Source of the DNA: an uncultured Gammaproteobacteria bacterium
GTDB taxonomy: Bacteria > Patescibacteriota > Microgenomatia > CAZXEC01
Length of the DNA stretch: 64,000 nt
Assembly (NCBI GenBank): GCA_964639595.1
Contig: CAZXEC010000001.1
Span: forward strand, 88,111-152,110
Direction: 5' to 3'
Shown: piece by piece, positions 3,554 to 58,039 of the stretch
How positions within the stretch are numbered: the stretch's first letter is position 1
How the letters are laid out: the number at the start of each line of letters is the position of its first letter
Notes under the pieces: model-generated
What the model saw: the letters and a program-made list of their open reading frames with translations, nothing else
What the model was told of the DNA's origin: nothing
Databases searched by the model: none
Made by a program: the position numbers and the translations under genes

Positions 3554-5062
3554 TTGCCGAATATCAACCAGAAAGAAGTATTTATTGTGGACAAGAAAAA
3601 CCTAACCAGTGCTTTACCTATTCGCCCGCCGGTTGTGACAATTTTAGGCCATGTTGATCATGGTAAAACCACACTGTTGGATGCTATTCGTACTGCTAAT
3701 GTGGCTGTCCGTGAGCATGGCGGTATTACTCAACATATCGGTGCTTATCAAATAATCTATAAAAATTCTCCTATTACTTTCATTGATACTCCCGGACACG
3801 CAGCTTTTTCTGCCATGCGCTCTCGAGGCGCCAGAGTTGCCGATATTATTATTTTGGTGGTGGCAGCAGATGACGGAGTAAAACCCCAAACTAAAGAAGC
3901 CATCAAAATTGCCAAAGAGACGAAAGTGCCAATTATTGTGGCTGCCAATAAAATGGATTTACCGGGTGCTAATTTGGAAAAATTAAAGCAGCAATTGTCC
4001 CAGGAAGGAGTGTTAGTAGAGGGATATGGTGGTGATGTGGTGATTTTGCCAATTTCTGCCAAAACCAAACAGGGTCTTGATGATCTGCTGGGAATGATTG
4101 TGTTAGTTGCCCAGATGCAAGAGCTAAAAGCTGATCCCAAAACTACTCCATCGGCAGTGGTGATCGAATCAAGATTGGACAGGAATCGAGGGCCAGTGGC
4201 CACGGTCATTGTTAAGGAAGGAACATTGAAAGCAGGAGATCGAATTGAGGTAGAGGGGATAACTGGGAAAATCAAAGCACTAATCGATGACCAAGGAAAA
4301 AATATCAAAGAAGCACAACCTGCCAAACCAGTGGAGATTTTAGGACTGTCTCAAGTTCCTTCGGTGGGGACAGTTATAGAAGAGGCCAAGGGTGTACCAG
4401 CAAAACGTCAGGTTAGTATACGGAGATCTCCGGCATATCAAATGCAGACTATTGATAGCTTGCCAACATTGCTAACACCAGTCAGCACAGATAAAAAATT
4501 ATCAGTAGTGTTAAAAGCAGATGTGGCAGGATCACTGGAGGCAATTGTCGAATCCATACCAAAAGAGATTAAGATTGTATCAATGGCCACTGGTAACATT
4601 ACCCCTTCTGATATTTTGCAAGCTTCCAGCGTGGGGGGCCTGGTAATTGGTTTTAATGTTGGCTTCACCACCGAAGCAGAAAGACTGGCGGTCCAAGAGA
4701 AAGTACTGGTAAAAACTTACCAAGTGATTTATGAATTATTAGAAGAGATTGGGGAAGTATCTAAATCATTATCACAACAAGTCGGTCGCGGTAAGATTAG
4801 TAACAGGGCAGATATTATTGCTGAGTTCGGCTCTGGTAAATCCAGAGTTGCCGGTTGTTTAGTGCAAGAAGGCAGCATGAAAACTGGTCAGACTGTTAAC
4901 CTAGTCAGAGACGGGCAAACCATAGGCCAAGCCAAAATTGTTTCACTGCGGCGAGGCAAAGAGACAGTAGATCAAGCCCCTAAAGGAATAGAATGTGGGA
5001 TGGTTATTGATCCGCAACTTGACTTTCAAGTGGGTGATCAGATAGAATCCCATAGTAAGTAA
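3554..5062 (+). CDS. infB: Translation initiation factor IF-2, minimal form (G domain onward, 502 aa; TTG start)
   Basis: [13 protein letters not shown]1 motif about 30 aa from the start, then DTPGH and NKMD. C-terminal IF2 beta-barrel domains. An in-frame stop 6 nt upstream bounds the ORF. Confidence 0.9.
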   Translation: MPNINQKEVFIVDKKNLTSALPIRPPVVTILGHVDHGKTTLLDAIRTANVAVREHGGITQHIGAYQIIYKNSPITFIDTPGHAAFSAMRSRGARVADIIILVVAADDGVKPQTKEAIKIAKETKVPIIVAANKMDLPGANLEKLKQQLSQEGVLVEGYGGDVVILPISAKTKQGLDDLLGMIVLVAQMQELKADPKTTPSAVVIESRLDRNRGPVATVIVKEGTLKAGDRIEVEGITGKIKALIDDQGKNIKEAQPAKPVEILGLSQVPSVGTVIEEAKGVPAKRQVSIRRSPAYQMQTIDSLPTLLTPVSTDKKLSVVLKADVAGSLEAIVESIPKEIKIVSMATGNITPSDILQASSVGGLVIGFNVGFTTEAERLAVQEKVLVKTYQVIYELLEEIGEVSKSLSQQVGRGKISNRADIIAEFGSGKSRVAGCLVQEGSMKTGQTVNLVRDGQTIGQAKIVSLRRGKETVDQAPKGIECGMVIDPQLDFQVGDQIESHSK

Positions 5063-50396: not shown

Positions 50397-50816
50397 ATGC
50401 AATCAACAGCCAGCGTTAAAGCCAAAGATATTAAAAGACAGTGGCAACTAATTGATGCCAGAGACCAAATTTTGGGCAGGATGGCTACCAGGATTGCCAC
50501 GCTTTTGCTGGGTAAGGGCAAGCCGTATTTTGTTCCCCATATGGATTGTGGTGATTATGTAGTAGTGGTCAATGCCGGCAAGGTTAAAACCACTGGTCGT
50601 AAACAAGAGCAAAAACAGTACAGTCGGTATTCAGGTTATCCGGGCGGACTCAAAAAAACATCCCTGGCTATCTTGAGAGAGAAAAAACCAACAGAGGTAA
50701 TCAAACATGCAGTGCGGGGAATGATGCCGCACAATAAATTAGGCCGGCAAAGTATTAAAAAATTATTTGTTTTTGAGGGGGGAAATCATCCCTATCAAGG
50801 TCAGGTGAAAAGCTAA
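50397..50816 (+). CDS. rplM: 50S ribosomal protein L13
   Basis: WQLIDARDQILGRMATRIATLLLGK. Confidence 0.93.
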   Translation: MQSTASVKAKDIKRQWQLIDARDQILGRMATRIATLLLGKGKPYFVPHMDCGDYVVVVNAGKVKTTGRKQEQKQYSRYSGYPGGLKKTSLAILREKKPTEVIKHAVRGMMPHNKLGRQSIKKLFVFEGGNHPYQGQVKS

Positions 50817-51268
50817 TGCCCAGAAAGAAAAAAGCAGCGCCGGTTATCAAGGAAGTAGTAAGTGAGAAACCTAAAGAGCAGGTAGTCTATCAAGCGGTGG
50901 GCCGCCGCAAATCGGCAGTGGCTCAAGCCAAACTTTTTGCCGGCGCCGGTAACTTAACGATTAACAGTCACCCCATATTGCAATATTTTTCCGGCCAGGT
51001 ATCAAAGCTGGCTTGGCAAAAACCTTTTCAAACAGTGGGAGCATTAGGTAAATTTGACGGTACGATTAAAGTTTACGGCTCCGGCAAAAGCGGCCAACTG
51101 GTGGCAGTTACTCATGCCATCTCCCGCGCCCTGCTGCAAGTCAATCCGGATTGGAGAAAGCCTCTCAAAAAACAAGGACTTTTGACCCGTGACCCCAGAG
51201 TTAGGGAAAGACGCAAATACGGCAACGCCCAAAAAGCGAGAGCGAAAAAGCAGTCACCCAAACGATAA
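50816..51268 (+). CDS. rpsI: 30S ribosomal protein S9 with an N-terminal extension
   Basis: YQAVGRRKSAVAQAKL...RERRKYG. Confidence 0.93.
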   Translation: MPRKKKAAPVIKEVVSEKPKEQVVYQAVGRRKSAVAQAKLFAGAGNLTINSHPILQYFSGQVSKLAWQKPFQTVGALGKFDGTIKVYGSGKSGQLVAVTHAISRALLQVNPDWRKPLKKQGLLTRDPRVRERRKYGNAQKARAKKQSPKR

Positions 51269-51422
51269 ATATTTTCGCCCGAAGTCCTGCTAAATCACTG
51301 CACATAACAAATTTTAAACGGGGAATTATACCTAAAGGCGAGCGAGGGCAACGGAAGCCGCTTCCTCGCCGATTCAAGGAGTGAGATATTCGTATTAAAT
51401 AAACACATCCTAATATTAGCTA

Positions 51423-51451
51423 TTGACAAGCTTGGCAGTTTATGCTATACT
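51423..51451 (+). promoter_or_regulatory. Near-consensus sigma70 promoter driving the island operon (TTGACA-17 nt-TATACT)
   Basis: TTGACA 51423-51428, 17-nt spacer, TATACT 51446-51451. Lies about 30 nt upstream of the first island ORF. Confidence 0.6.
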
Positions 51452-51480
51452 AGTCTCTGTTTTTAGATAAAATCAAAAAA

Positions 51481-51696
51481 ATGTCAGAGACACGTAAAGA
51501 AAAATTTGTAAGGTTAGCAACTTATCGGACTAATGTTGTGTTAGAGAAGCTCCGCATCCTCGGCAACCTTTCCAACAAAGCTAACTATGAATACTCCGAA
51601 GAGGAAATAAATAAAATCTTCTATGCTATTGATTCACAACTCCGGATCATAAAAGCTCGTTTTAGTGGTAAAAGGAAAAGAGAGTTTAAATTATGA
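51481..51696 (+). CDS. Hypothetical small basic protein (71 aa), first gene of the island operon
   Basis: No recognisable motif. Overlaps the next ORF by 4 nt (ATGA). Confidence 0.45.
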   Translation: MSETRKEKFVRLATYRTNVVLEKLRILGNLSNKANYEYSEEEINKIFYAIDSQLRIIKARFSGKRKREFKL

Positions 51697-52262
51697 AAAG
51701 AACCAGAAATACATTAGATGATTTACTCTTGCTTTGCATTAGTGATATTTTGGGGAAAAAACAAAAGTGTTCCTACGGAAATCTTGTTAAAAAGGCCTCT
51801 ACGAAATATCCCGAAGTTTTTAGTTTGTCAGATTATCCCAAATGGCCAGATTCTCTTAAGTTGGATCGGCCACTAAGGCAATTAAGAAGTGAAAGATTGA
51901 TAACAGGTAGCCCGACAACGTTTTATTCGTTGACTTCTCTGGGTAAAGAAAAAGTCAGATTTTTAAACAACAAACGGTTTCCGGTAAAAGACAACACTAG
52001 TAGGCCAACAAGAAGCCCCTCTTTGACATTTCTAAAAGAACTAGAAAATAGTGATGACTTTAAAGATTTTGCTTCAAACAAAGAAGACTTCAAGCCAAAT
52101 AATATGAAAATAAGAGCTCTGACAAGATTTACTCTAGAGACGCCTAAGAAAGTTATTTTAGACCACTTGCTCTTTTTAAAAAAAACTGCTCATCGAGAAA
52201 AAAAGGGAACTTTGGAAGATTTTTTAATCACTTACATAAATTACATCGAAAGAATTAAGTAA
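51693..52262 (+). CDS. Hypothetical protein with a putative N-terminal winged-helix domain (189 aa)
   Basis: Helix-turn-helix-like N-terminus with a wing-like ...LRSERLITGSPTTFYSLTSLGKEKV. Only 2 nt separate it from the downstream ATPase gene. The fold assignment is inference. Confidence 0.45.
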   Translation: MKRTRNTLDDLLLLCISDILGKKQKCSYGNLVKKASTKYPEVFSLSDYPKWPDSLKLDRPLRQLRSERLITGSPTTFYSLTSLGKEKVRFLNNKRFPVKDNTSRPTRSPSLTFLKELENSDDFKDFASNKEDFKPNNMKIRALTRFTLETPKKVILDHLLFLKKTAHREKKGTLEDFLITYINYIERIK

Positions 52263-52264
52263 AT

Positions 52265-54163
52265 ATGGATTTTCAAAGCGCAGAGTCGGGGCAACTGTCA
52301 GTTAACGAAGGAAGGTTAGTTAAGTCTCTTGCAGATAGTACAGTTAGAGGCATAATGGACGCAGTTGTAGAACTAGTAACGAATTGCGACGATAGCTATG
52401 TACGTCAAGAGCAAGAAGGTAGTAATTCTTCTGGTAGGATAGACCTCTATATTGATCGAGGTGCTGGTGGACATTGTAAAGAATTGAGGGTAATCGATGA
52501 GGCGGCCGGCATGGATTACCAAGCATTACGAAGAGCAATAGAATTTAGCGGGGAAACCAGCGGTTTTAAAGAAGGAAGAAGTGTCAGGGGTTTTTTTGGA
52601 CGCGGCCTAAAAGAATCCATACTCGCTTTGGGGATAGGGACGATATTTACCTTAAAAAAAGGTGTTCTTAGCAGAGCAATTATTTCTTATGACGAAAAGG
52701 AAAGGCAATCAAAATACGACCTATCAGTTCCTGTACAGAACCTTTCACAGGAAGAATTAATTAATTATGGTTTTTCGGGCAATTCAGGGACTTTAGTAAC
52801 AATTAAGATAACAAACACAAAGAAAGATTACATCCCAGGAAGAAATCATATAAAAGAACAGTTCCTAAAACACTATGCTTTCAGAGATATTAATTCTTCC
52901 ACAAAAAGAGCAGTGTATTTACACTTCTCGGATGTAGAAAGTAAAGATAAATATAGCTCAAATATCCCATTGGTTTATAAATGGCCGGAAGGGAAATTAG
53001 TTTTCGATAAGGATATGAAAATACTTAATTCAGTAGCTCATTTTAAAATTTACGAGAGCTTAGAACAGTTGCAAACTCCTAAAAATCCTACTGGTGAAGC
53101 AGGTCTATTGATAAAGACCGAAGGGGCGATTCTGGACAACCAATTATTTGGCTTCGAGACTGATCCAAACGGTCTATTTTTCTTCGGAGAAATAACTGCT
53201 CCGGGGATAGCCCAAGCAATTAGAAGCGGTGATGAATCTATCGTGGATACCAACAGAACAGGTTTAGCTCGGAACCACCCGTATAATAAAGAGCTTGAAA
53301 ATATAAGTAAGGAAATTCTAGGAAAACTTATTCAGGAAAGAAAAGAAAGACTAAAATCAGAGAAAAAAGCTGAGTTGGCAGAACCTATAAATAACCTTTT
53401 TAATAAATTATGCAAAGAATTATCAGATCTAGCAAAAGATGAACTCGAGGATAAGGAACCTGGTCCAGGAGAAGTCAAAGCATTTATGATCAAGCCTCTT
53501 TTTGCAAACATAGACCCTGAATCACCTAGGACACTTTCCGTATATTGTCCAAAGTATTTATCAGAAGATGAAGGAACAAAGGTTGTAAATCTTTTGAGTT
53601 CTAACGGGAATATAAAATTATCTAATGAATCCATAATTCTTGAACAATACAAAAGAGACCCAGATGTACTAAAGTCAACTTTTAAATTAAATGGAGAAAA
53701 CGAAGGCGAAGTGGCTCTAATAACGGCCACATTGGGACGAGTTACCGCCAATAGTGAAGTAAGGGTGCATAAATTAGGACACATAGGTCCAGGCTCAGAA
53801 AAACCTCCGACTGGTTCAGGAGGAGGAGTTTTTAGAAAGATAGAGCCTGCTTATGATGAAAGCCCAATACAAAGATTTGAATATGTTTCTGGAGGAATAA
53901 TAAAAGTATATATAAAGTTTCCTGGAGTTGGAGACATTTTAGGAGAAAATTTTGAGACTATAGAAACTCAGGGTGCAAGAGTCGCATTATCAGAGATTGT
54001 TATAGAAGCGTTTTCAAGACATATTTCCAGACAACGAGTTGGAAAATATGTAGAGGAGCAGATAGACCCTTTTACATCAGAGATGGATAGATTAAGAAAG
54101 AAAGCCACAAAGACTGTTTATAATATCCTTCTCCGAGCAGATTTGAGAGAATTATTAAATTAG
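52265..54163 (+). CDS. GHKL-superfamily (Bergerat-fold; MutL/MORC/histidine-kinase-like) ATPase, 632 aa, with a long domain of unknown function
   Basis: N-box ELVTNCDDS, G1-box RVIDEAAGMD, G2-box GFFGRGLKESILALGIGTIFT, all within the first 130 aa. No Hsp90 middle-domain signature. No HK dimerisation/His box. Confidence 0.75.
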   Translation: MDFQSAESGQLSVNEGRLVKSLADSTVRGIMDAVVELVTNCDDSYVRQEQEGSNSSGRIDLYIDRGAGGHCKELRVIDEAAGMDYQALRRAIEFSGETSGFKEGRSVRGFFGRGLKESILALGIGTIFTLKKGVLSRAIISYDEKERQSKYDLSVPVQNLSQEELINYGFSGNSGTLVTIKITNTKKDYIPGRNHIKEQFLKHYAFRDINSSTKRAVYLHFSDVESKDKYSSNIPLVYKWPEGKLVFDKDMKILNSVAHFKIYESLEQLQTPKNPTGEAGLLIKTEGAILDNQLFGFETDPNGLFFFGEITAPGIAQAIRSGDESIVDTNRTGLARNHPYNKELENISKEILGKLIQERKERLKSEKKAELAEPINNLFNKLCKELSDLAKDELEDKEPGPGEVKAFMIKPLFANIDPESPRTLSVYCPKYLSEDEGTKVVNLLSSNGNIKLSNESIILEQYKRDPDVLKSTFKLNGENEGEVALITATLGRVTANSEVRVHKLGHIGPGSEKPPTGSGGGVFRKIEPAYDESPIQRFEYVSGGIIKVYIKFPGVGDILGENFETIETQGARVALSEIVIEAFSRHISRQRVGKYVEEQIDPFTSEMDRLRKKATKTVYNILLRADLRELLN

Positions 54164-54175
54164 CGTCAACAACGA

Positions 54176-54409
54176 ATGTTTCAAGCGAAGAGGGCAAAAA
54201 AAATTACAATCGGTCAGGATGGAATCTATCTACTTAGACTAGCGCTTGAATCTTTTGAAGTCATTACCGAAGGTTTCAATCGGCAGGTCAATAAATTCCC
54301 AAGTATGCAATCTTCAATAAGGGCAAGAAAGATAATTCCAAAACTTAACAAGGCGATAATCGAAATACGGACAATTATTAAAAGACTTGAGAGAAATCTT
54401 AACTTTTAG
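54176..54409 (+). CDS. Hypothetical small protein (77 aa), last gene of the island + operon
   Basis: 12 nt downstream of the ATPase gene. Basic and helical. No recognisable motif. Confidence 0.4.
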   Translation: MFQAKRAKKITIGQDGIYLLRLALESFEVITEGFNRQVNKFPSMQSSIRARKIIPKLNKAIIEIRTIIKRLERNLNF

Positions 54410-54430
54410 GCTTAAAGATACCTATTATAT

Positions 54431-54487
54431 AAAAAGTTCTTTCCTCCTTCGCTAGGGCTACGGAAAGACAGGTAAAATTTTTGCGTG
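54431..54487. repeat. Copy A of an imperfect direct repeat of about 50 bp (AAAAGTTCTTT...TAAAATTTTTGCGTG)
   Basis: Shares an 11-nt 5' core and a 14-15-nt 3' core with copy B at 55829-55878. Located in the convergent intergenic gap. Confidence 0.5.
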
Positions 54488-54490
54488 ATT

Positions 54491-55114
54491 TTATCCTCTT
54501 TTAATCTTTTTCCAAAATCCGTCTGGAACGACCACTAATTTTAGAAAACTTAACCTTACCAGGAGACTATCAGCTGTAACTTCAAATTCTTGAGCCAGAT
54601 CGGGAAAAGTATCTGGAAGATCAAAAACCGAACAGGGGGTTGGAATACGATTTCGGCTCATAAATTGATCCCATCTTTCCTTCAAGACTTTTTCCGGCAT
54701 TAATACCATACTAGCAAAAGTTCTGGCTTGTCTTTCAATATAGTCGAATAACTTATTATCTAATTTCTCCTGCCATGTTATATATGGTTCTAAGCCTTTT
54801 GGGCCATCCTTGCTGTACCATTCTTTGTGAAGATATAAATGACCGATTTCCTCAGCAATAGTAAATCTTATTCGTTCCGGTTGTTTGGTATACATTCCTT
54901 CGTCTATCACGATAGAATCGAAGTTTTGGTTAATAAATGCATTTACTCCAAAATTTTTGATCAATCCACTAATTAAGATAATCCTAAGTCCTAATTTTAA
55001 TTCAGCTATATCCTCAATAGGTACTGGAAGAGTTAAAGAAGGATGACAATTTTCTAAAAATAAATTCGCTTGATTCTTAACGTCCTGAATATTTATCTCG
55101 TTGGGATTTTTCAT
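54491..55114 (-). CDS. ImmA/IrrE-family (M78-like) metallopeptidase-domain protein, second gene of the HTH-peptidase pair
   Basis: RFTIAEEIGHLYLH aligns to the ImmA/IrrE HEXXH helix, but the first His is replaced by Glu. Directly abuts the upstream HTH gene. Confidence 0.65.
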   Translation of the reverse strand: MKNPNEINIQDVKNQANLFLENCHPSLTLPVPIEDIAELKLGLRIILISGLIKNFGVNAFINQNFDSIVIDEGMYTKQPERIRFTIAEEIGHLYLHKEWYSKDGPKGLEPYITWQEKLDNKLFDYIERQARTFASMVLMPEKVLKERWDQFMSRNRIPTPCSVFDLPDTFPDLAQEFEVTADSLLVRLSFLKLVVVPDGFWKKIKRG

Positions 55115-55501
55115 TCATTTGTCTAGTAGAGTTATTAACTGCTCCAGTTTTTTTCTATCCAGTTTTTTATTTCTCATGGTTCTGAAGAATGCTGGTAGCA
55201 GATCATTTATATTTTCTTGATTTTTTATATCTGTGGGGATTTGTCCTTTGGCTGTATGTGCCAAATCATGAAATTTAATCCATTCTTCAGTGTCACGTTT
55301 TATTTTCAGAGCAGTTGCATATCCTGCTAATTTTTCATCATCTAGCGTAGGCGGCAAGATATTTCTTTCAAGTCTACTGATATTTCCTGGATCATAACCA
55401 TATCTTTCGCAAAACGCACGAAGGGAAAATCCAAGTTCTATTCTCTTTACTCTGAAGAAATCACCGAAATTTTGATTAGAAGCATCTTGAATTTTATTCA
55501 T
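55115..55501 (-). CDS. XRE-family helix-turn-helix transcriptional regulator
   Basis: FRVKRIELGFSLRAFCERYGYDPGNISRLERN, a Cro/C1-type HTH. ATG at 55501 chosen. The track ORF extends to a GTG at 55525, which lies inside a palindrome. Confidence 0.7.
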   Translation of the reverse strand: MNKIQDASNQNFGDFFRVKRIELGFSLRAFCERYGYDPGNISRLERNILPPTLDDEKLAGYATALKIKRDTEEWIKFHDLAHTAKGQIPTDIKNQENINDLLPAFFRTMRNKKLDRKKLEQLITLLDK

Positions 55502-55502
55502 A

Positions 55503-55556
55503 GTGTTGTAATAATAATACAACACTATTCTAGTATAGACTTTGACAGGTTGTCAA
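55503..55556. promoter_or_regulatory. Two operator-like inverted repeats in the divergent HTH/HNH promoter region
   Basis: GTGTTGTA-ATAATAA-TACAACAC (55503-55525). TTGACA-GGT-TGTCAA (55542-55556), the latter carrying a -35-like TTGACA. Confidence 0.55.
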
Positions 55557-55569
55557 GTTTTGAAAGGAG

Positions 55570-55812
55570 ATGAAGGTAAAAAATATAATGAATTATAAAT
55601 GTAGATATTGTGGATGGACAGGTCCAAGAAAAGATTTCGAGATTGACCATGTAATCCCAATTGTTAGGTCAATTTTACAGAATATCTTACAGCCAGCGCT
55701 AGATTTAATTTGTTCTGGTTGCAACAGACAAAAAGGCAGAATGACAGGAGCAGGATATATGGAGATTGCTAAATTCATTCGAAGCAAATTTAGGACCAAT
55801 TATCTAAAATGA
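55570..55812 (+). CDS. Small standalone HNH endonuclease (80 aa)
   Basis: CRYCGW...FEIDHVIP...N...CSGCNRQKG, the HNH beta-beta-alpha-Me with two CxxC pairs. Confidence 0.75.
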   Translation: MKVKNIMNYKCRYCGWTGPRKDFEIDHVIPIVRSILQNILQPALDLICSGCNRQKGRMTGAGYMEIAKFIRSKFRTNYLK

Positions 55813-55828
55813 AAAGATTGAATTTTTG

Positions 55829-55878
55829 AAAAGTTCTTTGCCTCGCCTTTGGCGAGGGGCGTGTTAAATTTTTGCGTG
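55829..55878. repeat. Copy B of the roughly 50-bp imperfect direct repeat; contains the CCTCGCC-TTT-GGCGAGG hairpin
   Basis: AAAAGTTCTTTG CCTCGCCTTTGGCGAGG GGCGTGTTAAATTTTTGCGTG. Confidence 0.5.
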
Positions 55879-55909
55879 TCAAATAATTGGCCTACCGAAT
55901 TTTATCAAA

Positions 55910-55943
55910 TTAACTAATCTCACCTGTTAACTAATCTCACCTG
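55910..55943. repeat. Perfect tandem duplication of the 17-mer TTAACTAATCTCACCTG
   Basis: 55910-55926 and 55927-55943 are identical. Confidence 0.8.
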
Positions 55944-55968
55944 GGAAGTGGATTAGCTTGACACCGAT

Positions 55969-56814
55969 TTAAGAAAATTTCAAAATTTGATCAAGTTTGT
56001 TGTTAGGAAATAAGTCTTTTGGATAAATAGAGATAACATTTAACCTTTGTTGTTGCCAGAACTTTTTCTTTCTTGCAATCAAAGCGTCGTATGCTTTAAC
56101 CTCTCCTTTTAATCCAAAAAATTCAATAAGACAGCCATTAACCTTAAAATCGGCAGTCATATTATCCTTACCGTAAGGAATATTTCTATCGTGGAGAATT
56201 TTTCTAGCATAAAACCAATCATCAATAATCTTCTCAGTTAATGAGTCGCATTTGTGTCCATCATTAGCAATATACTTTTTGGCATACTTAACCGGGTTAG
56301 GATTAAAACCTGCAGCTATGATAGCAGCATTCCAGCTACCAAAGCGAAGGCGTGCTGCTTTGTGTTGGCTAAATTCTCTTTTAAGAGGAATCCTTCCAGT
56401 CTTTTTATAGAACGATTGAATTTGCTCAATAATTATTTCTTTTACTATAATTTGACCAGCATTTTTACACGCCTTTGAGCAATACTTCTCTCGACCTTTA
56501 AATTCTTTATTGCAATAACCACACATTTTAATAACAGCATGCCTTTTGGGAAATCTTGAGTTATTTATTGTCGCTGCGCAAGAGCGAGAGCAATAGTAAG
56601 ATCTGGCATTCTTGAGTTCCTTCAATTGCCGTTTGAAGATCTTGCCACAAGAAGGATTAGTGCAGATAAGCGCTTTTTGTTTATTTCTTGCCTTGCTTAT
56701 ACATTCTAGAGAGCAATATATATTCCAGTCAAACTTTTTACCTTCATTGATTCTCCCTTGACTACGAAGAATAATTTTTTTACATCGATCACATTTAACA
56801 GGCAAAAGTTCCAT
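55969..56814 (-). CDS. Multi-zinc-ribbon protein with a C-terminal Vsr/DUF559-like PD-(D/E)xK endonuclease domain
   Basis: Six or more CxxC pairs in the N-terminal half. C-terminus DSLTEKIIDDWF...ADFKVNGCLIEFFGLKG...YDALIARKKKFW...LNVISIY matches the Vsr/DUF559 core. Start codon is 2 nt from the tRNA-like 3' end. Confidence 0.6.
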   Translation of the reverse strand: MELLPVKCDRCKKIILRSQGRINEGKKFDWNIYCSLECISKARNKQKALICTNPSCGKIFKRQLKELKNARSYYCSRSCAATINNSRFPKRHAVIKMCGYCNKEFKGREKYCSKACKNAGQIIVKEIIIEQIQSFYKKTGRIPLKREFSQHKAARLRFGSWNAAIIAAGFNPNPVKYAKKYIANDGHKCDSLTEKIIDDWFYARKILHDRNIPYGKDNMTADFKVNGCLIEFFGLKGEVKAYDALIARKKKFWQQQRLNVISIYPKDLFPNNKLDQILKFS

Positions 56815-56815
56815 G

Positions 56816-56889
56816 TCGGGGGAACTGGTTCCGCCCCAGCGACCTCTCGCACCCCATGCGAGTGCTCTAACTATCTGAGCTACCCCCCG
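56816..56889 (-). tRNA. tRNA-Pro(GGG)-like gene, 74 nt, CCA not encoded, atypical D- and T-loops
   Basis: Minus-strand RNA is CGGGGGG-TA-GCTC-AGATAGTTA-GAGC-A-CTCGC-ATGGGGT-GCGAG-AGGTC-GCTGG-GGCGGAA-CCAGT-TCCCCCG-A. C1:G72 pair and A73 fit tRNA-Pro. Anticodon loop has U33, GGG, G37. The D-loop lacks GG and the T-loop is GGCGGAA, not TTCRANY. Confidence 0.55.
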
Positions 56890-56980
56890 AATATTGTTAT
56901 TTTACCATAAAAGAAGCCTGTTAAATACCAGTTGATTTTTCACCATCAGATGATATACTGCCCCTAAAAGAAAAAAACTT

Positions 56981-58039
<1,059 letters not shown>

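Follow-up and report, generated by a model that had tools for sequence, protein, structure and literature searches.

Within a 64,000-nucleotide (nt) stretch of DNA from an uncultured bacterium of the Patescibacteriota (contig CAZXEC010000001.1, positions 88,111 to 152,110 of the forward strand; hereafter the window), a gene on the minus strand encodes a 281-amino-acid (aa) protein whose start codon lies immediately downstream of a gene for tRNA-Pro(GGG). The reading that we tentatively favour is that this tRNA-linked nuclease, for which we use the working name ZnPD, is a resident enzyme of the homing-endonuclease type that is tethered to the tRNA-Pro(GGG) locus. ZnPD would most likely act as a site-specific DNA endonuclease with a target site in or beside this locus, and its family would be a homing-type element that has turned into a long-term, mostly vertically inherited resident. 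A preliminary description of this part of the window had presented ZnPD and a small HNH protein encoded close by as two unusual nucleases at the edge of a genomic island. Both open reading frames (ORFs) are real, at 55570-55812 on the plus strand and at 55969-56814 on the minus strand, and both products carry nuclease domains, recognised by Pfam in the HNH protein and by structure in ZnPD. The two genes are unrelated to each other.

The ZnPD gene and its attachment to tRNA-Pro(GGG)

A protein search with ZnPD retrieved 777 homologues of about 280 aa with 50-62% identity, all from bacteria of the candidate phyla radiation (CPR), and a profile search of cluster representatives yielded 226 clusters at E<1e-30. 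When one genome per species was scanned, orthologues were found in at least 147 species genomes, all of them Patescibacteria despite some mislabelled records, and among 80 loci inspected each was the single locus of its genome. On long contigs, the orthologue adjoins tRNA-Pro(GGG) and recA. In two of the loci compared in other genomes or contigs (designated here by L-numbers), L005 and L006, it is located directly between rpsI and tRNA-Pro/recA with 57 nt to spare and no island; one HhH-GPD-like gene separates it from rpsI in L003, and unrelated ORFs do so in L007. The G+C content (GC) of the family is 0.340 compared to a locus mean of 0.396, and it is below that of recA in 38 of 38 loci. Because the orthologues are single-copy and syntenic, some of them without any island, genome comparison identifies the ZnPD gene as a resident gene rather than island cargo, and its island-like look is due to a low GC that is a trait of the whole family. 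The placement at an island edge proposed in the preliminary description, which had named conserved orthologues outside islands as evidence that would speak against it, is thus withdrawn for ZnPD, since single-copy syntenic orthologues of exactly this kind occur in many Patescibacteria. This corrects an easy mis-annotation, as a low-GC nuclease gene beside an island proves to be a conserved resident of an uncharacterised, CPR-only family.

The position of the gene was scored in 87 loci with a definable start codon. A tRNA-Pro(GGG) gene is found at the 5' end of the ZnPD gene in 81 of them (same strand in 71 loci, opposite strand in 10), and all but one of these tRNAs lie at most 130 nt from the start codon. 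Regarding the 6 exceptions, 4 have less than 65 nt of upstream sequence, and L040 and L079 carry variants that were seen by eye. ARAGORN detected the tRNA-Pro(GGG) just upstream in most loci, and the remaining loci carry a tRNA-Pro(GGG) with an unusual T-loop. The only neighbour conserved over this deep divergence is thus a single tRNA species, and the start codon follows it by 0-10 nt in many lineages.

Neighbour clustering revealed no recurrent partners besides the tRNA, except recA/recX and ribosomal genes. Of 93 non-redundant loci, 36 have recA and 32 have recX at a distance of no more than 2.5 kb, recA being either divergent and upstream (17 loci) or directly downstream on the same strand (19 loci). 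These counts bear on an alternative explanation, in which ZnPD is a cellular nuclease of DNA repair or recombination that nicks DNA in the manner of Vsr and works with RecA, and in which the adjacency to the tRNA is an old, compact gene order. The presence of recA and recX so close by speaks for it, as does the glycosylase-like HhH-GPD gene that is next in L003. By contrast, adjacency to tRNA-Pro(GGG) is essentially universal when that to recA reaches about 39%, many lineages have recA beside tRNA-Pro without the ZnPD gene, and the HhH-GPD neighbour is not recurrent. The proximity of recA follows from the ancestral place of the tRNA itself next to recA, and we consider a repair function unlikely.

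At the junction in the window, the discriminator A (56816) and a single C (56815) precede the ATG (56814-56812), in agreement with the preliminary description, which had located the start codon 2 nt beyond the tRNA 3' end; the linkage now appears family-wide. With a gap of 1 nt, a promoter between the tRNA and the ATG is impossible. Because of this single C, the gene has no room for a promoter or a ribosome-binding site of its own, and the only simple route of expression would be for the tRNA promoter to drive both genes and for the joint transcript to be cut endonucleolytically at the 3' end of the tRNA, a cut that is needed anyway since no CCA is encoded. Such processing would release an essentially leaderless mRNA (5'-C-AUG). 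Inspection by eye pointed to a candidate -10 box, TAAAAT, at 56899..56904 on the minus strand, at a distance of 9 nt from the tRNA 5' end; a promoter at this position would drive a tRNA-mRNA co-transcript. The box does not reach the threshold of the promoter scan; in relatives, TATAAT-like boxes precede the tRNA by 15-25 nt. The promoter scan also returned a match at 56732-56703 on the minus strand, inside the ORF, which is probably a chance occurrence in AT-rich DNA.

Across the family, the distance from the tRNA to the start codon is bimodal, being 0-10 nt in 17 loci and about 30-90 nt in the others. The loci with the longer gap often have a terminator hairpin and a promoter of the gene's own, with a -10 box that ends 5-8 nt before the start codon. 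Since the start codon either abuts the tRNA or follows the -10 box this closely, both layouts predict a leaderless or near-leaderless mRNA. In these own promoters, a conserved motif, TTCGGGTTTTATTYGG, occupies the stretch from the -35 to the -10 box, where 15 of its 21 matches in 1.16 Mb are found; it is located about 10-25 nt upstream of the start codon in L003, L005, L019, L026, L032, L035, L048, L052, L079, L082, L131, L151 and L156, and is absent from the window. This motif is a candidate operator, possibly for autoregulation. An SOS-like operator shared with recA was considered and rejected, as TTCGGGTTTTATTYGG occurs almost only before this gene family and not at recA.

The linkage was also followed in the opposite direction, by scanning metagenome contigs for the remodelled form of the tRNA described below. 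This reverse scan gave 61 matches, about 49 of which are real tRNAs and about 42 of which have at least 300 nt of downstream sequence. The ZnPD gene follows the remodelled tRNA-Pro(GGG) in 13 of these approximately 42 loci and is missing from about 29, the absences having been confirmed by a profile search of all ORFs. Many of the lineages that lack the gene have recA, tRNA-Pro and rpsI in this order with less than 100 nt from the tRNA to rpsI; L139 and L155 are examples of such a recA-tRNA-rpsI junction without the gene. The linkage is therefore one-sided, the gene being always at this tRNA and the tRNA being often without the gene. In some gene-less loci, another ORF begins 2-5 nt past the 3' end of tRNA-Pro(GGG), as observed for a GIY-YIG nuclease (L179, 3118-3408, plus strand), an adenosine-specific kinase (L174, 587-1069, plus strand) and an HhH-GPD-like protein (L150, 1292-2260, minus strand). 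At the tRNA-Pro(GGG) locus, ORFs may thus commonly be joined to the end of the tRNA.

Mitochondrial transcripts are punctuated by tRNAs, and bacteria have tRNA-mRNA operons such as thrU-tufB. The arrangement in the window resembles both in that a coding region abuts a tRNA, so that excision of the tRNA would set the 5' end of a leaderless mRNA. It would differ as a case on a bacterial chromosome that is conserved for one specific gene-tRNA pair across many lineages. If the co-transcript is real, this would be a compact bacterial analogue of organellar tRNA punctuation, and it would naturally supply leaderless mRNAs to bacteria that already have an unusual translation apparatus.

Domains, fold and relatives of ZnPD

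The N-terminal part of ZnPD carries 12 cysteines in six pairs, all invariant in an alignment of 32 sequences. The preliminary description had counted six or more zinc-ribbon units; the cysteines instead form three Cys4 zinc fingers of the FCS/MYM-like type (56467..56793, minus strand; C8/C11/C34/C38, C51/C56/C75/C79 and C98/C101/C112/C116), each built in the AlphaFold model as a beta-hairpin and a helix. A MYM-type zinc finger was the subject of a weak sequence match in the PDB (E=0.22), and the phage HNH endonuclease family phrog_1271 matches residues 46-144 (E=5e-9). The fingers are followed by an HNH_repeat, the three-helix 'homing endonuclease associated repeat' (PF18780, E=5e-11, residues 125-170; 56305..56442, minus strand), whose helices span residues 125-139, 151-158 and 161-167 in the model. 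The FGSWNAAIIAAGF helix pointed out in the preliminary description falls within this Pfam match.

The C-terminal domain (55972..56289, minus strand) is a Vsr-like PD-(D/E)xK nuclease domain, as indicated by Foldseek, by the PADLOC family PDC-S69 (residues 176-278, E=7e-11) and by its invariant columns. In the AlphaFold model of ZnPD (pLDDT 85.5), its core has an alpha-beta-beta-beta-alpha-beta order, and the best Foldseek match in the PDB is the catalytic domain of the homing endonuclease I-Bth0305I (3r3p_A, prob 1.0, TM(target) 0.72, E=8.7e-3, root mean square deviation 3.0 over 91 columns). Further fold matches include Vsr (1vsr/1cw0, prob 0.94-0.97), TnsA and the DUF559-like 3hrl, the Vsr/DUF559-like structures as a group giving prob values of 0.82-0.97. 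The C-terminal Vsr/DUF559-like domain of the preliminary description is thus upheld by AlphaFold and Foldseek and not by hidden Markov models (HMMs), as neither Vsr (PF03852) nor DUF559 (PF04480) matched ZnPD at E<1 in Pfam or NCBIfam. Among the profile searches that the description had proposed, that for HNH was positive (PF01844, E=2.4e-8, in the HNH protein), and those for DUF559/Vsr were negative. PDB sequence profiles likewise gave no match to 3r3p or Vsr at E<=10. Proof of a Vsr/DUF559 relationship at the sequence level therefore failed in all three collections, and it is structure that supports the assignment.

In the 32 sequences, the nuclease domain has E194, D222, E231, Y242, K249, D185, G186, H187 and C189 as invariant residues, and D243 is nearly invariant (at least 90%). 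Since E194, D222, E231, Y242 and K249 are invariant and D243 nearly so, the enzyme is probably catalytically active. When residues were mapped by motif order rather than by superposition, no conserved histidine was found between D222 and D243.

The closest structural relatives of ZnPD are found in the EDxHD family, whose members join a Vsr-like domain to N-terminal DNA-binding modules and include free-standing phage genes (PMC3239194). ZnPD resembles I-Bth0305I of this family (phage Hef; 3r3p) in its N-terminal DNA-binding region and C-terminal Vsr-like nuclease, in the conserved helix Glu and strand Asp and in a further acidic residue, E231 in ZnPD, where Vsr has F62; in addition, the prototype of the family and the ZnPD gene are both located in or near recA. 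It differs by the lack of any sequence-level match, by an N-terminus made of three Cys4 fingers and an HNH_repeat instead of NUMOD or helix-turn-helix (HTH) modules, and by its genomic situation, the gene being outside any intron or intein, chromosomal, single-copy, always beside a tRNA gene and mainly vertical in its signal. The composite motif of the family (E, D, x, H, D) includes a general-base histidine (PMC3239194), and ZnPD has no conserved histidine at this position. Membership of the EDxHD family is therefore not established for ZnPD.

With Vsr and DUF559 proteins (1vsr, 1cw0, 3hrl), ZnPD shares the fold class and an E...D...E constellation of acidic residues on the same secondary-structure elements. 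Equivalents of His64 and His69 are absent, the zinc site and the intercalating Trp residues of Vsr are not evident, extra N-terminal modules are present, and there is no dcm partner. The Vsr-like fold, the invariant catalytic residues and the largely vertical inheritance are compatible with the repair nuclease considered above; against it, the catalytic histidine of Vsr is not conserved, no dcm-type methyltransferase was seen as a partner, and the N-terminal half is built from modules of phage homing endonucleases. Indeed, 79 phage proteins that combine zinc-finger arrays with DUF559, Vsr, NUMOD3 or HNH domains match ZnPD at E<1e-3. In phage nucleases of this modular, homing-type build (in BFVD, and phrog_1271 and phrog_22655), as in ZnPD, the DUF559, Vsr or HNH nuclease domain comes after a zinc-finger array, an HNH_repeat/NUMOD module or both; these nucleases are phage-borne, whereas the ZnPD family is fixed at one chromosomal site. 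PDC-S69, a candidate single-gene defence family, aligns with the C-terminal domain at closely similar positions (residues 176-278 of ZnPD and 176-277 of 289), which suggests a similar overall length. The N-terminal 175 residues of ZnPD have no match in PDC-S69, and the context of the ZnPD gene is not a defence island.

One homologue departs from this domain order. In L094 (2722-3483, plus strand), from another Patescibacteria lineage, a different N-terminus, HTH-like by eye, replaces the zinc fingers; Pfam detects the HNH_repeat only, and the protein keeps the HNH_repeat, the nuclease domain and an ATG that abuts the tRNA 3' end. Swaps of modules of this kind are typical of homing endonucleases. 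The combination of zinc fingers, HNH_repeat and a small Vsr-like domain represents a possible new scaffold for site-specific cleavage.

Several observations weigh against the view of ZnPD as a homing-type DNA endonuclease. The fold alone cannot separate a DNA from an RNA substrate, and the general-base histidine of Vsr (H69) and I-Bth0305I (H213) is without conserved counterpart, so that the chemistry may differ. Identity matrices of RecA and ZnPD are correlated (Mantel r=0.57, a value that 0 of 2000 permutations reach), and no pair with high ZnPD and low RecA identity was found, hence no positive sign of horizontal homing. Viral contigs hold no full-length orthologue, the best relative having 33% identity. 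Length and catalytic residues are strictly conserved over deep divergence, a pattern more readily expected of a cellular function under selection than of a selfish gene in decay. Finally, the 10 loci with the tRNA on the opposite strand imply that co-transcription is not the sole reason for the linkage.

The fixed site, the patchy presence, the low GC and the modular build are, on the other side, the traces that a homing history would leave. Considered together, these comparisons point to a long residence with mostly vertical descent and losses rather than to active horizontal homing. An origin of the gene in phages was rejected, as viral contigs hold only partial or distant relatives. The comparison of L154, which has the gene, with L180 and L179, which lack it, was examined as a case of recent gain or loss and set aside: the tRNAs are 94-97% identical, and flanks of only 68-77% identity show that these loci are not close relatives, which makes the comparison uninformative.

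The remodelled tRNA-Pro(GGG)

The tRNA-Pro(GGG) gene of the window (56816..56889, minus strand) is 74 nt long, encodes no CCA and folds into a cloverleaf with a minimum free energy of -34.2 kcal/mol and a GGG anticodon in a 7-nt loop. The canonical T-loop (T54 Psi55 C56 R57 A58) and the G18 G19 pair of the D-loop are not found in it: its elbow has the T-loop GGCGGAA and the D-loop AGATAGTTA, with A18 G19. When 28 distinct relatives were aligned, standard pairs filled 99.8% of pair cells, and compensatory changes were seen at 16 of the 21 pairs; none of 500 shuffled controls reached these values, and pairing in slid controls was no more than 35-50%. The alignment also shows conservation of A18, G19 and the T-loop G54 G55 C56 R57 G58 N59 A60. 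On the evidence of cloverleaf and covariation, the tRNA of the window is genuine, in agreement with the preliminary description, which had called it a tRNA-like gene.

ARAGORN and Rfam both miss this gene because its T-loop is remodelled. ARAGORN reported 0 tRNAs in the window, and Rfam (RF00005) gave no match to the window tRNA even at E<=10 on 121 nt, whereas the canonical syntenic copy of L005, used as a control, scores 61.1 bits in Rfam. A canonical tRNA-Pro(GGG) holds the equivalent position in L003 and L005. Remodelled relatives are found in L007, L016, L017, L026, L028, L030, L032, L046, L067 and L123-L183; they have GGCGGAA, GGCAGTA or GGCAGGA instead of TTCRANN in the T-loop and A18 instead of G18, and their four stems covary strongly. 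ARAGORN misses most of these relatives as well and detects a few. A survey of T-loops in 109 distinct CPR tRNA-Pro(GGG) genes, a biased sample, revealed the further variants TGCAATC, TCCGANN and AGCGTNA, the other tRNAs of the same loci being mostly canonical. A limited literature search found no published account of the remodelled tRNA-Pro(GGG). Genuine tRNA-Pro(GGG) genes with non-canonical T- and D-loops therefore escape both programs, which bears on claims of 'missing tRNAs' in CPR bacteria, and the remodelled elbow bears on how this tRNA is read by RNase P, RNase Z, the CCA-adding enzyme and the ribosome.

The tRNA also brings in the possibility that ZnPD acts on RNA, as a dedicated factor that processes or stabilises either tRNA-Pro(GGG) or its own tRNA-mRNA precursor. 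FCS/MYM-type zinc fingers are RNA binders, and the Vsr-like RAP domains of mitochondrial FASTK proteins act on RNA; FASTKD4, a Vsr-like protein, is reportedly involved in the stability and polyadenylation of MT-ND3 mRNA. Such a role, comparable to that of the FASTK RAP domains at transcript junctions, would be in line with the obligate linkage to one tRNA species even when inverted, with the start codon abutting the tRNA 3' end in 17 loci and with the remodelling, in this lineage, of the tRNA elbow, which is recognised by RNase P and RNase Z. The fold matches include Toxoplasma mitoribosome proteins and, weakly, the tRNA splicing endonuclease (1a79, prob 0.51). However, the ZnPD gene also accompanies a fully canonical tRNA-Pro(GGG) in L003 and L005, and the remodelled tRNA does not need the gene, as about 29 of 42 remodelled loci are without it. 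The nucleic-acid-binding modules and the nearest structures are moreover those of DNA enzymes, which leaves an RNA substrate quite improbable in our judgement.

We also considered whether the gene and the tRNA form a bacterial 'tRNA punctuation' unit, in which the gene would be expressed only as a leaderless mRNA cut from the tRNA-Pro(GGG) precursor across many CPR lineages, its product would be a dedicated partner of the tRNA or of its gene (for example in processing, protecting or targeting it), and the tRNA has in addition undergone a coordinated change of its elbow (G54 G55 C56 R57 G58 with A18) that hides it from standard tRNA finders. This more ambitious proposal is speculative, and we give it little weight.

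The low-GC insert, the HTH/M78 pair and the HNH gene

The ZnPD gene and its tRNA lie in a region enclosed by a ribosomal-protein/rpoA block, the last gene of which is rpsI, and by recA-recX-rny. rpsI (ribosomal protein S9, 50816..51268, plus strand; Pfam Ribosomal_S9, E=2e-35) closes the conserved ribosomal block, is the direct neighbour of the orthologue of the ZnPD gene in L005/L006 and forms the left border of a low-GC variable insert (the 'island', 51269..55968, genes on both strands), recognised by its drop in GC and by its non-conserved content in relatives. On the other side, recA (56981..58039, plus strand; Pfam RecA, E=2e-129) is divergent from the tRNA and belongs to a conserved recA-recX-rny-hup block. 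The GC of the insert is 0.359 compared to 0.426 for the rest of the window, and values of 0.33-0.37 extend across 51.3-56.9 kb versus about 0.43 elsewhere. In order, the insert contains ORFs of 71 aa (51481-51696), 189 aa (51693-52262), 632 aa (52265-54163; a GHKL-type ATPase, Pfam HATPase_c_3, E=1e-7) and 77 aa (54176-54409), all on the plus strand, followed by genes for an M78 peptidase, an HTH repressor and the HNH protein. The four plus-strand ORFs run convergent to the M78/HTH pair and had no match in PADLOC, NCBIfam or PHROGs; they could be uncharacterised cargo of a defence system or mobile element.

The equivalent interval comprises 57 nt in L005, a single HhH-GPD gene in L003 and unrelated ORFs in L007. 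Because its content differs in this way among syntenic loci, the 4.7-kb low-GC segment is an insertion at a variable spot between rpsI and the ZnPD gene. A tRNA attachment-site (att) island of the classical kind was rejected, as the insert has no integrase, no border repeats and no repeat of the 3' part of the tRNA: no direct or inverted repeats of at least 11 nt were found between the two insert borders, and a search for a tRNA-derived att repeat, that is, a copy of the tRNA 3' part, was negative. The right border of the insert carries, just 3' of the ZnPD stop codon, two perfect tandem copies of a 17-bp sequence (TTAACTAATCTCACCTG x2; 55910-55943). A contig of a Candidatus Daviesbacteria metagenome-assembled genome that matches the window (JACQJB010000003.1, GCA_016198195.1) stops at about window position 55314, inside the HTH gene, a break that hints at strain heterogeneity or at a repeat at the insert that interrupted that assembly.

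The M78 metallopeptidase (ImmA/IrrE/CapP-type, 207 aa; 54491..55114, minus strand) was identified by Pfam Peptidase_M78 (E=1.4e-13) and by PADLOC capP (E=1.8e-15), the latter covering profile positions 3-124 of 242, which is the N-terminal peptidase part only. Its metal motif is EEIGHxxxH instead of HExxH; EE[IV]GH is common to 4 of 5 M78 relatives, EE[IV]GHxxxH being found in the window, L010, L185, L187 and L191 and HEIGH being kept in L094. The XRE-type HTH repressor (128 aa from ATG 55501; 55115..55501, minus strand) gives weak matches to HTH_31 and HTH_3 in Pfam (E about 1e-3). The listed GTG start at 55525 is probably not real; the protein is 94% identical to its copy in L010, with an alignment that begins at residue 9. 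The HTH gene is followed by the M78 gene at a stop/start junction (1 nt), and both are divergent from the HNH gene. The pair is a widespread CPR module, as the search yielded 253 HTH homologues of 128-133 aa with 62-92% identity.

As the preliminary description had proposed, the HNH gene and the divergent HTH/M78 pair have a control region in common, which carries palindromes, and this arrangement is kept in L010. The region (55500..55556, serving both strands), delimited by an inverted-repeat search and a promoter scan, contains an inverted repeat with 14-nt arms at 55500-55528, the TTGACA palindrome TTGACAggtTGTCAA at 55542-55556 and a strong promoter for the HTH gene (TTGACA-18-TAGAAT, minus strand, 55556 to 55527). 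Positions 55497-55567 differ from L010 at only 3 positions, the flanking codons being more diverged. These palindromes are candidate operators to which the repressor may bind. The HNH/HTH/M78 trio occurs again at a different locus in Daviesbacteria CP066688 (L010), with identities of 83%, 94% and 90%, respectively, and it is by this comparison a portable module carried on the low-GC insert.

The layout fits a switch of the ImmR/ImmA, DdrO/IrrE or CapH/CapP type. As in these systems, an XRE-HTH gene is directly followed by an M78 peptidase gene, and the controlled gene runs the opposite way from a common promoter region in which palindromes are conserved; the published capH/capP genes are likewise upstream, on the opposite strand and with a shared promoter region (bioRxiv 10.1101/2022.04.27.489752). 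Relatives of the window pair flank large serine recombinases, as ImmR/ImmA flank the integrases of mobile elements. The differences are that only the peptidase domain of the window M78 protein matches capP, the GAF domain not being among the matched part, that the metal motif is EEIGHxxxH and not HExxH, and that the controlled gene is a lone HNH gene of 74 aa, not an operon of the cyclic-oligonucleotide-based antiphage signalling system (CBASS) or an excisionase. In such a switch, the repressor would occupy the palindromes of the control region (about 68 nt), the M78 peptidase would cleave the repressor upon a DNA-damage or infection signal, and the HNH gene would then be expressed. Since the trio and its palindrome-bearing control region are kept in a second genome at a different locus, it is a reasonable reading that HNH is the regulated effector of the HTH/M78 pair, and the HNH gene would plausibly be a derepressible gene of a mobile or defence module.

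Two observations count against this role of HNH: the protein occupies the divergent slot in only 2 of about 7 HTH/M78 contexts, and its window copy is frameshifted. HNH as a widely conserved partner of the pair was accordingly rejected on the former count. The divergent partner varies between HNH, a large serine recombinase and small ORFs, which is the pattern seen in ImmR/ImmA-type immunity regions on integrative elements and in defence operons under CapH/CapP control. Large serine recombinases are divergent to the HTH/M78 family in L184 (4048-5295, minus strand) and L186 (4096-5646, minus strand), and another lies beside an HNH relative in L013 (7669-9231, plus strand). These neighbours suggest that the modules belong to CPR integrative elements.

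These genes also allow an opposing explanation of the whole locus to be weighed, namely that both nucleases are island cargo, toxin or defence effectors under HTH/ImmA control, with the ZnPD gene marking the island edge. Both genes have a low GC like that of the insert, a candidate defence family of PADLOC (PDC-S69) matches the C-terminal domain of ZnPD, and in L094 an HTH/M78 pair is again found just downstream of the ZnPD homologue, at 3714-4741 on the plus strand, placed as in the window, with 65% and 39% identity to the window proteins and without an HNH gene. However, the low GC is a property of the whole ZnPD family, whose orthologues lie between rpsI and tRNA-Pro/recA without an island (L005/L006) or with unrelated inserts (L003, L007); the HNH/HTH/M78 trio travels without the ZnPD gene in L010, and transcription of the ZnPD gene starts on the side of the tRNA, remote from the HTH control region. 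A common origin of both nucleases as island cargo is thus very hard to sustain, and ZnPD is better taken as the resident of the tRNA-Pro(GGG) locus.

The HNH gene itself is ordinary in kind. Its ORF matches PF01844 over residues 11-57 (34.4 bits for a gathering cut-off of 21.4), HNH_5 (Pfam, E=5.5e-7) and many phage HNH PHROGs, and the CxxC, DH and CxxCN motifs are invariant in 7 sequences of the family, the window copy and six relatives (C5/C8, D20-H21 and C42/C45-N46 in 74-aa numbering, comprising the catalytic His, the metal-binding Asn on the helix and two CxxC zinc pairs). The preliminary description had considered it a minimal 80-aa core with two CxxC pairs; the motifs stand and the length does not. 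Because the L010 orthologue has a 5-nt indel upstream of the shared, conserved ATG, the more likely start of the gene (55588..55812, plus strand) is 55588 rather than 55570, which would give 74 aa. Compared to this 83%-identical orthologue, 5 nt are deleted near 55758, and the conserved tail (WRLLN..AN.GPII) is put out of frame; an alternative frame at 55754-55807 encodes DIWRLLNSFEANLGPII*, in agreement with the family consensus tail. The full-length frame of the family is thus not intact in the window copy. This deletion is either a recent frameshift or an assembly error, and the copy in the window may be decaying, possibly inactivated. With a misplaced start and a frameshifted tail (or an assembly error), the 80-aa shape is partly an artefact, the family being 74-76 aa long. 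A terminator-like hairpin was detected 3' of the gene at 55844..55861 on the plus strand. Further relatives of HNH are found after a Type ISP restriction enzyme and beside a serine recombinase.

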